Source of the DNA: a virus
Taxonomy: Duplodnaviria; Heunggongvirae; Uroviricota; Caudoviricetes
DNA: 29,281 nt
Virus record (IMG/VR): IMGVR_UViG_2923302340_000002
Coordinates: 1-29,281 of that record
Strand: one strand, 5' to 3'
Below, piece by piece: positions 2,466 through 5,718 of the stretch. Position 1 is the first letter of the stretch; every line of letters begins with the position of its first letter. Below the pieces are notes generated by a model, which was not told the origin of the DNA, searched no databases, and saw nothing but the letters and a program-made list of their open reading frames with translations. The translations under genes and the position numbers were made by a program.

Positions 2466-2491
<26 letters not shown>

Positions 2492-2562
2492 TCAGCAACC
2501 CCGGTATCAGTTCATCCAGCGCGGCTGCTTTGTTCATGGCTTTGATGATATCCCGTTTCAGG
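2466..2562 (-). pseudogene. nu1: nu1 3' fragment (C-terminal ~31 codons of terminase small subunit), separated from the rest of the gene by the IS insertion
   Basis: Minus-strand reading gives [31 protein letters not shown]-stop, overlapping the A start as in lambda. The fragment abuts the left IS end at 2562/2563. Confidence 0.75.
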
Positions 2563-2592
2563 GTAAGCGGCTCGTCAGAACCGTATTGATAT

Positions 2593-4164
2593 TTACTGAG
2601 AGCTCAGATCAACTTTCCAGGGCAACAGATCGCGTACCCGGTTTGCCGGCCAGTCCTGGATATGTTCAATGACGTAGCGCAGCCACTTTTCTGGCTCCAC
2701 ATTGTTCAGACGGCATGTGCCGATCAGCGAGTACAACACCGCCGCATGTTCACCACCGCTGTCGGAACCCGCGAACATCCAGTTTTTCCGGCCTACGGCC
2801 ACTCCCCGTAAGGCGTTCTCTGCGATGTTGTTGTCGATTTCCACCCAGCCATTACTGCAGTACACGTTCAGTGCATCCCACTGTTTCAGCAGGTATGCGA
2901 ACGCTTTTGCCGTATCTGAGTGACGCGACAGTGTTTTCATCTGTTGCTGTATCCAGTCATACAGTGACTGCATCAGTGGCGCGGCTCTGGTTTTTCTTGC
3001 CGCCAGACGCTGTTCTGCTGAACAGCCCCGGACCTCTGCCTCGATGGCATACAGTTCACCGATACGCTGCAGGGCTTCCGTGGTGATGTCGGTGGGCGCT
3101 CTTGCATGCACATCGTGGATTTTTCTCCGGGCATGAGCCATACACGCGGCTTCCGTTATTCTGCCGGATTCGTATAACGCCCGGTAACCACCGTAAGCAT
3201 CGGCCTGAAGCACACCGCTGTAACCGGCCAGGTGATTTTGTGGATGGATACCTTTCCGGTCCGGACTGTACGCGAACCAGACCGCCGGGGGCATCTGTGA
3301 ACCGGCGTTACGGTCATCACGGACGTAGACCCACAGCCGGGCTGTCCGGGGTTTACCGCTGCCCGGCTCCTGGACCGGGACGGGGATATCATCAGCATGG
3401 ACTTTACCGGGCATCAGCACATACTGGCGCAGGACGTCATACAGCGGCTCCAGTAGTTCAGCAACGGCACCTGTCCAGCGCCCCAGCGTGGCGCGGCTCA
3501 GCTCCACACCCTGACGGCGGTATATCTCTGACTGGCGGTATAACGGCAGATGGTCTGCATATTTTCCGGTGACGACATGGGCCAGGAGCCCCGCTCCGGC
3601 ATAACTGCGTGCAATGGGTTTTGAAGGTACTGGTGCCTGCACGATATGGTCGCACCGGCAACAGGCCAGTTTCGGACGTTGTGTTTCGATAACCTTAAAG
3701 GCGCTGCTGATAAGCTCCAGTTGCTCTGACACATCACATCCCAGAGAACTGAGTTCACCACCACAGGCCGGACAGCATTCCTCTTCCGGCCGGATAACCC
3801 GGGTTTCACGGGGAAGTGAGGCCGGTAACGGTTTACGGGCTGAAGACTGGCGCAGGGCGGATGGCAGTACCGGGTCATATTGCTCACCCAGCGTTTCCGC
3901 CATTTCTTCCTGAAGTGCGCTGATTCGCTCCTGTGCTTCCTGTATCTGCCGTTCGGTTTTTGCGCGAAGTTTTTCTGAGCTTTTACCGAACTGCATACGC
4001 TGCAGTTTCGCAACCAGCGCCTTCAGCCGGTTGATTTCGGAAGCATAAGCCGCCACCCGCTGTGAGAGCAGGCGGTTGTATTCAGCCATCTGGCGTATGG
4101 TGTCCTGTTGCGTCTGCAACAGTGCCCGCAGGCGGGCGTTCTCATGAGCAAGTGAGGTGTCCAT
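2593..4164 (-). CDS. tnpC: IS66-family transposase (TnpC / orf3)
   Basis: 523-aa ORF with an N-terminal coiled-coil region ([33 protein letters not shown]), a Cys-rich zinc-binding segment (CPACGG...CCRCDH) and a C-terminal catalytic region, as typical of IS66 TnpC. Confidence 0.9.
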
Positions 4165-4183
4165 ATCCTCACTTTACAACGGG

Positions 4184-4531
4184 TTATATACGGATTCCAG
4201 CGCGTTCCGTTCGTTTCGGGTGCTTCCAGTTGATACCTTCAAGAAGCATGGATAACTGAGCCGGAGTAAGGTGCACCTTGCCGTCACGGGTGACTGGCCA
4301 GACGAAGCGGCCCCGCTCCAGGCGTTTGGTGAAGAGGCACAGTCCGTCACTGTCAGCCCACAACACTTTTATCTGGTCACCCCGGCGTCCGCGGAAGATG
4401 AACAGGTGTCCGGAGAACGGGTCATCCTTCAGGACGTTCTGAACTTTTGATGCCAGGCCGTTAAAACCATTTCGCATGTCGGTGATACCGGCAACCAGCC
4501 AGATACGCGAACCGGCAGGGAGAGATATCAT
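4184..4531 (-). CDS. tnpB: IS66-family accessory protein (TnpB / orf2)
   Basis: 115-aa ORF MISLPAGSRIWLVAGITDMRNGFNGLASKVQNVLKDDPFSGHLFIFRGRRGDQIKVLWADSDGLCLF, typical IS66 Orf2. Its start overlaps the upstream ORF stop. Confidence 0.9.
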   Translation of the reverse strand: MISLPAGSRIWLVAGITDMRNGFNGLASKVQNVLKDDPFSGHLFIFRGRRGDQIKVLWADSDGLCLFTKRLERGRFVWPVTRDGKVHLTPAQLSMLLEGINWKHPKRTERAGIRI

Positions 4532-5208
4532 CAGTGGCTGCTCCCTTTCATTTCGCGGATAAGTGTCTGTAATAACGCCGGCGTCAGTTTACCTTTAAGC
4601 CTGAGAGTTCCGGCCGGCAGAACCAGCTCGCAGCACAGACTGTCTGGCAGTGTATTTATCTGTTCAGGTATCTGCACTGGTGCCGGGATTTTATTATCCG
4701 GCTCCGGCGTTAACGTCACGGGAAGTAGCGATGTTTCATGTTCGCCGGGCGGCTGCAGGCCGCCGTTACGCCAGAGATGCCGCCAGTTAAAGAGCAGGTT
4801 ATCGTTGATTCCGTTTTCCCGGGCGATCTGCGCCACACAGGCTCCGGGCTGCAGTGACTGCTCCACTAAGGCGATTTTAAACTCATAAGGGAAGTTGGGC
4901 CGCCGGGGACGTTTTTTTACCACGGGGGCTTCGGATATAACGGTGCTTTCAGGACGTACGACTGGTACCGTGGAAAATTGTCCGTAAAGGCAGGCATCAA
5001 GTTCCTGCTCCGACATGCCTGCGGGCAAAGGCCACGAAAGGCCAGCTCTCCGAAAGCGCACGAACATACTACAAACTGTTGATTTTGGTACACCCAGGCG
5101 ACGCCCGGCCACAACCCGGGGTAAATGTTCTTCAAAGTGAAGACGTAAAGCTTCAGTGATCCAGGTCCGGTGTTTCATACGATAGTGTCCATTAAAAATG
5201 ATGGACAT
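4531..5208 (-). CDS. tnpA: IS66-family helix-turn-helix protein (TnpA / orf1); the true start may be internal to the 225-aa ORF
   Basis: The ORF contains the segment RPNFPYEFKIALVEQSLQPGACVAQIARENGINDNLLFNWR typical of IS66 Orf1. It is longer than usual for this protein, so the start codon is uncertain. Confidence 0.7.
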   Translation of the reverse strand: MSIIFNGHYRMKHRTWITEALRLHFEEHLPRVVAGRRLGVPKSTVCSMFVRFRRAGLSWPLPAGMSEQELDACLYGQFSTVPVVRPESTVISEAPVVKKRPRRPNFPYEFKIALVEQSLQPGACVAQIARENGINDNLLFNWRHLWRNGGLQPPGEHETSLLPVTLTPEPDNKIPAPVQIPEQINTLPDSLCCELVLPAGTLRLKGKLTPALLQTLIREMKGSSH

Positions 5209-5244
5209 TATTTTTGTAGAGCCGGAGGAAACAGACCAGACGGT

Positions 5245-5718
5245 TTAAATGAGCCGGTTACGTTTCAGGAAATCAACATGTCGGTTTTCCAGTTCCGGAA
5301 AACGCCGCTGTACCGAGAGAGGGATCCCGTCAAGAATACTGGCAATTTCACCTGCGATCCGTGACAGCACGAAAGTACAGAATGCGGTTTCCACCACCTC
5401 TGCGGAGTCTCTGGCATTCTTCAGCTCCTGTGCGTCGGCCTGCGCACGCGTAAGTCGATGGCGTTCGTACTCAATAGTCCCAGGCTGGAGATCTGCCTCA
5501 CTGGCAGCCCTGTAACCCTCAACCTCTTTACGGAGTTTTTCATTTTCGATATCAGCTTCCCTCTGCGCATACCACTGAATTGCCATGGCGGTATCAAATA
5601 CAGATTCAACGCCCTTACCACCTCCGGAGACACAAGGGAGTCCCTGAGATTGCCAGCGTTCAATCGTTCGCGGATCCACGTTGAAAATTTCGGCAAGTTT
5701 CTTTTTATTAACCTTCAT
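5245..5718 (-). pseudogene. nu1: Terminase small subunit nu1, truncated by the IS66 insertion after about codon 153, with the last four codons and the stop supplied by IS sequence
   Basis: [39 protein letters not shown]...[15 protein letters not shown] follows lambda Nu1 and then diverges into NRLI-stop exactly at the IS junction (5261/5262). Confidence 0.85.

Follow-up and report, generated by a model that had tools for sequence, protein, structure and literature searches.

The nu1 gene of a lambdoid Escherichia coli prophage, which encodes the small terminase subunit (TerS), is interrupted by an ISCro1-type element of the IS66 family, very probably through a single transposition of this active element; the insertion probably abolishes packaging of the prophage DNA in cis, and rescue in trans or repair of the gene could get around this defect. 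Lambdoid prophages with nu1 knocked out by an insertion sequence (IS) have been documented before, with a direct precedent, so that the event is not of a new kind; the present case is confirmed, well delimited and recent. It adds another clean and datable case of IS activity disabling prophages.

The interrupted prophage

The window, that is, the whole stretch of 29,281 nucleotides analysed here, is a lambdoid prophage in reversed orientation. The minus strand carries, in this order, cII, O, P, ren, the nin region and a Q gene of lambda size, followed by the genes for holin, endolysin, Rz and a Rha-like protein and then by cos, nu1, A and W, while the plus strand encodes a LexA-type repressor and a homologue of N. 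Full-length copies of W, A, the lysis genes, Q, the nin-region genes, O, P, cII and the repressor gene are visible in these 29 kb. The gene for the large terminase subunit (TerL), A (566-2491, minus strand), is intact, encodes 641 aa with the GpA_ATPase and GpA_nuclease Pfam domains, and begins with a GTG codon located within the 3' remnant of nu1, downstream of the IS. Likewise intact is the 12-nt cohesive end of cosN, GGGCGGCGACCT on the minus strand (5895-5906), as determined by alignment to the annotated cos of lambda DE3. Outside the analysed insertion region, the coverage of the prophage by any complete E. coli genome in RefSeq is at most 47%.

The inserted element

The insertion sequence occupies positions 2563-5261 (minus strand; 2,699 bp), begins with GTAAGCGGCTCG and has CGAGCC..GGTTAC at its far end in reverse complement. 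Its imperfect terminal inverted repeats are 22 nt long and 77% complementary: the tnpC-proximal repeat GTAAGCGGCTCGTCAGAACCGT (2563-2584) pairs with the tnpA-proximal repeat, GTAACCGGCTCATTTAAACCGT in reverse complement (5240-5261), at 17 of 22 positions, and both begin with GTAA, as the earlier note on this DNA had described. The same note had assigned the element to the IS66 family by three open reading frames on the minus strand, and this assignment holds under the curated Pfam and NCBIfam cut-offs, which were passed by all three products, TnpA, TnpB and TnpC. The tnpC gene (2593-4164, minus strand) encodes a 523-aa DDE transposase with the DDE_Tnp_IS66, zf-IS66, LZ_Tnp_IS66 and IS66_C domains; the protein, recorded exactly as AVS45290.1, matches PF03050 (DDE_Tnp_IS66) over profile positions 1-283 of 284 (E 3.9e-103) and the equivalog family NF033517 with 476.9 bits (cut-off 180). 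The accessory protein TnpB (115 aa; 4184-4531, minus strand) matches PF05717 (E 4.7e-40) and NF033819 (128.9 bits, cut-off 50), and the second accessory protein, TnpA (225 aa; 4531-5208, minus strand), contains a helix-turn-helix domain (HTH_Tnp_1), matches NF038385 (291.7 bits, cut-off 150) and has the same length as the annotated TnpA of the E. coli copies. All three genes are encoded on the same strand; the tnpA stop codon and the tnpB ATG overlap by one base (TGATG, 4529-4533), and 19 nt separate tnpB from the start of tnpC.

The element thus combines the features expected of an IS66-family member: a TnpC transposase, the tnpA/tnpB order, GTAA ends, an 8-bp target duplication and a length within the range of ~2.4-2.8 kb. 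Imperfect inverted repeats of ~20-30 bp beginning with 5'-GTAA are said to define the family, according to Han et al. in 2001. Functionally captured IS66 members are 2,731 and 2,829 bp long and generate 8-bp duplications (PMC3281130, Table 2).

Copies of equal length (2,699 bp) in E. coli, 99.9% identical to the element over its full length, are labelled "IS66-like element ISCro1 family" in RefSeq (PGAP). We therefore call the element ISCro1-type, a name that is provisional in so far as it comes from the RefSeq label of near-identical copies and not from the ISfinder reference. With these labelled copies the element has in common the tnpA/tnpB/tnpC organisation, the GTAA-initiated ends and the 8-bp duplications. 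The name ISCro1 derives from Citrobacter rodentium ICC168, in which 24 copies have been reported (PMC3072379). The exact 38-nt end of the element was matched in Escherichia sp. MOD1-EC7003, Citrobacter sp. ANG330 and E. albertii, and was not found in the representative genome of C. rodentium. Of 5,426 complete E. coli genomes, 1,492 contain a relative that spans at least 80% of the element.

Same-ended IS copies elsewhere are flanked by 8-bp duplications at three loci (L008, L011 and L012), by a 9-bp duplication at one locus and by none at one rearranged locus. The exact 38-nt end adjoins 52 different flanks, nearly all of them in the draft genome of MOD1-EC7003, and in that assembly the contig with the IS core is in ~50-fold excess of coverage; the number of flanks together with the coverage shows high recent activity of this IS variant. 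The 52 flanks reveal a weak target bias, with G at position 1 in 25, T at position 3 in 27 and T at position 4 in 30 of them, and the target used in nu1, GTTTCAGG, agrees with it.

Target duplication and reconstruction of nu1

A perfect 8-bp direct repeat, GTTTCAGG, lies directly outside both IS ends, with one copy at 2555-2562 and the other, abutting the opposite end, at 5262-5269. The same 8-mer is present only once in intact nu1, at nt 450-457, in lambda DE3, in an E. coli chromosome and in two near-identical contigs; read as its complement, CCTGAAAC, it is found once in the nu1 gene of lambda DE3, and the reconstructed gene has it at these same positions. When the 40-base left and right flanks of the IS were compared with the intact nu1 gene of an E. 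coli prophage (L001), they overlapped by exactly 8 bases. Because an overlap of exactly 8 bp with a single 8-mer was seen in three independent intact nu1 genes, and chance would place the same 8-mer at the two ends with a probability of 4^-8 (~1.5e-5), the repeat is a genuine target duplication. Both the junctions and the origin of the duplication from a single target, which the earlier note had proposed to check by alignment to intact nu1, were confirmed in this way.

The precision of the duplication also bears on the possibility that an assembler misplaced an IS copy in nu1. IS66-family copies are indeed multi-copy in E. coli, where the number of places per genome has a median of 2 and a maximum of 34, but a misassembly would not duplicate exactly 8 bp of a single-copy target, and an independent metagenome assembly, the 7.6-kb ENA contig L002, shows the identical nu1/IS junction; the probability of such an artefact is negligible.

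Deletion of the IS with one repeat copy restores a gap-free nu1 gene of 181 codons, which overlaps the start of A as in lambda DE3 and has cosN 177 nt upstream. The reconstructed Nu1 is identical to that of lambda DE3 at 150 of 181 residues and near-identical to it from about residue 71. In the interrupted gene, the reading frame that remains (5245-5718, minus strand) encodes 157 aa, namely the first 153 residues of Nu1, then NRLI, and ends at a stop codon inside the IS (...HVDFLKR+NRLI*); it matches Pfam Phage_Nu1 (PF07471) over profile positions 1-154 of 164 (E 1.5e-84). The earlier note had placed the junction at about residue 153, and the alignment to lambda DE3 Nu1 locates it precisely, after the first base of codon 153, with Arg153 regenerated by IS sequence before NRLI is added. 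On the other side of the IS, the 3' remnant (2466-2562, minus strand) comprises codons 151-181 and the stop codon, including one copy of the duplication, and is identical to nu1 in L001 and in one of the uninterrupted contigs described below (L005). Translation of 2466-2561 bears out the resumption there of the remaining 28 Nu1 codons, which are followed by the stop. Separate expression of this remnant was ruled out, since it is out of frame with tnpC and the stretch from the preceding stop codon to the remnant has no start codon in frame.

Distribution and age of the insertion

The empty site, obtained by joining positions 1-2562 to 5270-7000, matches two public contigs, L005 (GCA_047859265.1) and L006 (a Logan assembly), without gaps and at 99.88% identity. 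The five differing bases of 4,293 fall neither in nu1 nor between nu1 and cosN, and both contigs encode an identical gpA protein and an uninterrupted 181-aa Nu1. The insertion is therefore polymorphic and is the sole change to nu1.

The interrupted allele is rare among the records searched. Neither junction was found in 5,426 complete E. coli genomes with 240-bp queries; only three records cover at least 80% of a junction query, all of them with a different IS66-family element upstream of nu1. The exact left junction gave no matches in a search of one genome per species and none in the JGI metagenomes. The exact 157-aa product is recorded on one E. coli chromosome (AVS45293.1/WP_107235447.1) and on one metagenome contig (L002), and the tnpC product AVS45290.1 is three accession numbers from AVS45293.1 in the same E. 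coli record. The 157-aa protein has been deposited as an ordinary 'terminase small subunit', though it is the product of an IS-truncated pseudogene. "Partial" Nu1 proteins of 148-162 aa from the same 90% cluster were considered as further insertions and ruled out, as they are contig-end truncations of normal nu1.

The insertion is probably recent, as had been proposed from the perfect duplication alone. To the duplication can now be added the full-length IS genes, the 99.9% identity to other E. coli copies of the IS, the near-identity of the empty site to its uninterrupted relatives and the occurrence of the truncated protein on two records only. The metagenome contig L002 complicates this picture: it extends only 54 bases into the IS, matches the window with 100% identity between position 5208 and ~6100, and diverges beyond ~6300. 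Either the allele has been recombined into a second prophage background, in which case it would be less recent than thought, or the contig is a chimeric assembly.

An old insertion into a long-decayed prophage remnant, with the IS incidental to a prior defect, would fit the identical junction in this second sequence context, and the window does not extend to the portal, head and tail genes. Such a history is nevertheless very unlikely, given that every gene visible in the 29 kb is full length, that nu1 and cos are base for base the same as in the uninterrupted relatives, and that the IS has intact genes and a perfect duplication.

Consequences for DNA packaging

The following sequence of events is the most probable. 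An active ISCro1-type element (tnpA-tnpB-tnpC) would have undergone simple transposition into CCTGAAAC, at nt 450-457 of nu1 in a lambdoid E. coli prophage, with the usual 8-bp duplication. The truncated TerS would retain cosB binding and self-association; having lost part of its TerL-binding C-terminus, it would form no TerS2:TerL1 protomer, and the prophage would then be unable to cut and package its own DNA. TerL binding has been mapped to Nu1 residues 100-181 (PMC6739421), both terminase subunits are essential in vivo (PMC7229814), and the functional unit of terminase is the TerL1:TerS2 protomer (PMC7229814, PMC4856287). A packaging defect in cis, which the earlier note had proposed, is likely because the TerL-binding region has lost its conserved last 28 residues, and the holoenzyme should then fail to assemble at cos.

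The truncated protein (residues 1-153 plus NRLI) might instead be tolerated, so that the prophage packages unaided: it retains the DNA-binding domain, the central region and about two thirds of the TerL-interacting segment 100-181 (residues 100-153) (PMC6739421), and both gpA and cos are intact. The conservation pattern argues against this, because the 28 lost residues are the same as in lambda but for the last one, while the N-terminal 70 residues diverge freely, which points to constraint on the C-terminus. Moreover, Yang et al. in 1999 reportedly found that gpNu1 constructs ending at residue 141 fail to assemble with gpA. Unaided packaging is accordingly very unlikely, and loss of packaging in cis is the reading followed here.

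Inside the IS, a search of the minus (transcribed) strand revealed no terminator-like site, and promoter-like sites are no more frequent than in shuffled sequence. Because the IS lacks such a terminator and has the same orientation as the late operon, the intact A gene is probably still transcribed, with Q-antiterminated late transcription reading through the IS into it.

Since cos is intact, a second lambdoid prophage in the same host could package the prophage DNA in trans if it shared the cosB/Nu1 specificity, a route that the earlier note had not considered; alternatively, nu1 could be repaired by recombination with such a prophage. Either route is realistic here, because the median E. coli genome has segments homologous to nu1-A at two places, and the prophage can probably still move with help from others.

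Comparison with known systems

Relative to lambda, the prophage has an identical 12-nt cohesive end, a lambda-like cosQ-cosN region and a gpA with both gpA domains, whereas it departs from lambda in the DNA-binding domain of Nu1 (residues 1-70) and on the cosB side of cos. Because of this divergence, its packaging specificity is probably not that of lambda.

The closest precedent is prophage Sp4 of E. coli O157:H7 Sakai. In the report on that strain (PMC2669165), the nu1 gene of Sp4 is described as disrupted by an IS, and Sp4 DNA is nonetheless present in particles, which the authors credit to the terminase of a second prophage, Sp14, with a near-identical cos. Further independent insertions were observed: three unrelated E. 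coli genomes have a different IS66-family element ~9 bp upstream of where nu1/nohA starts, and an ISCro1-type copy was found in a portal gene. Together with the codon-153 insertion and with Sp4, these cases could be taken to mean that the cos-nu1 region of lambdoid prophages is repeatedly struck by IS elements, and that such insertions are retained because they lock the prophage in the host, non-packaging yet trans-mobilisable. So general a reading is highly improbable. Sp4 is likewise a lambdoid prophage with an IS in nu1 and a retained cos; it is a different prophage in a different strain, and it has additional defects, whereas in the present case the visible surroundings of the insertion are intact.

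Copy number and target preference of the ISCro1-type element

The exact left end of the 2,699-bp ISCro1-type element that interrupts the small terminase gene nu1 was found adjoining 52 distinct flanks (L014-L064), most of which are contig ends of Escherichia sp. MOD1-EC7003. The contig carrying the IS core (L023) has a coverage of 5953 versus ~110 for the remaining contigs, which implies that roughly 50 copies of the element are present in a single genome. The flanks of this end reveal a weak G-N-T-T bias in the target, and the same exact end is also present in Citrobacter sp. 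ANG330 and in the E. albertii type strain.

Insertions in the packaging region and in a morphogenesis gene of prophages

The nu1::IS junction is identical in a metagenome contig (L002; ENA ERZ28616196 scaffold_5166), which was compared with window positions 5208-6844. The identity is 100% up to ~6100, beyond which the two sequences show mosaic divergence, with 94 differences concentrated at 6300-6844; the lysis cassettes also differ. This pattern reflects either recombination of the nu1::IS allele into a different prophage or chimeric assembly of L002.

Three E. coli genomes that are unrelated to one another carry an IS66-family element, different from that of the window, between cos and nu1, where it precedes the start codon of nu1/nohA by ~9 bp: MSI001 (L003) and 09-00049 (L004), at locus positions ~5567-8265, and OkiPb01715. 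This is an independent event, the second in which an IS66-type element has hit the packaging region. In E. coli 24AR0142 (L012, locus positions 3001-5699), a phage portal gene of another prophage is split by an ISCro1-family copy flanked by the 8-bp duplication TTTTTACG; here the type of IS seen in the window has knocked out a further gene for prophage morphogenesis.

GenBank and RefSeq list the 157-aa product of the IS-truncated nu1 (5245-5718, minus strand) under the ordinary name "terminase small subunit" (AVS45293.1 and WP_107235447.1, respectively), and neither entry carries any flag of disruption.

Accessory and regulatory genes of the prophage

For the minus-strand segment 27142-28201, RefSeq names a Panacea/SocA-domain antitoxin protein and an adjoining hypothetical protein at the homologous loci of E. 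coli; this pair, which is followed by DUF2713 and a PrtN-family (Xis-like) gene, looks like a toxin-antitoxin moron close to the prophage end. Another gene pair (18794-20343, plus strand), located directly 3' of the cI-like repressor gene (17981-18688) in the place of lambda rexAB, encodes a HipA_2-like kinase (PF20613, E 2.6e-75) and a DUF3037 protein. This pair matches PDC-M66, a candidate defence system of PADLOC, in both of its components (A, 9.4e-19; B, 8.9e-15) and may constitute a prophage-encoded anti-phage module.

The Rfam match to Lambda_thermo, the cIII thermoregulator element (88.5 bits; 23203-23261, plus strand), indicates a putative lambda-type cIII in the leftward operon. Rfam matches over the gathering score were also obtained at 13346-13544 (minus strand) for the C4 antisense RNA (68 bits), its a1/b1 target (52 bits) and isrK (80 bits), upstream of an anti-repressor gene (12610-13293, minus strand). 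These matches suggest a P1/P7-style anti-repressor (Ant) module under antisense-RNA control within the nin region; two further Rha/Ant-like genes are located at 7327-7932 and 11813-12541.
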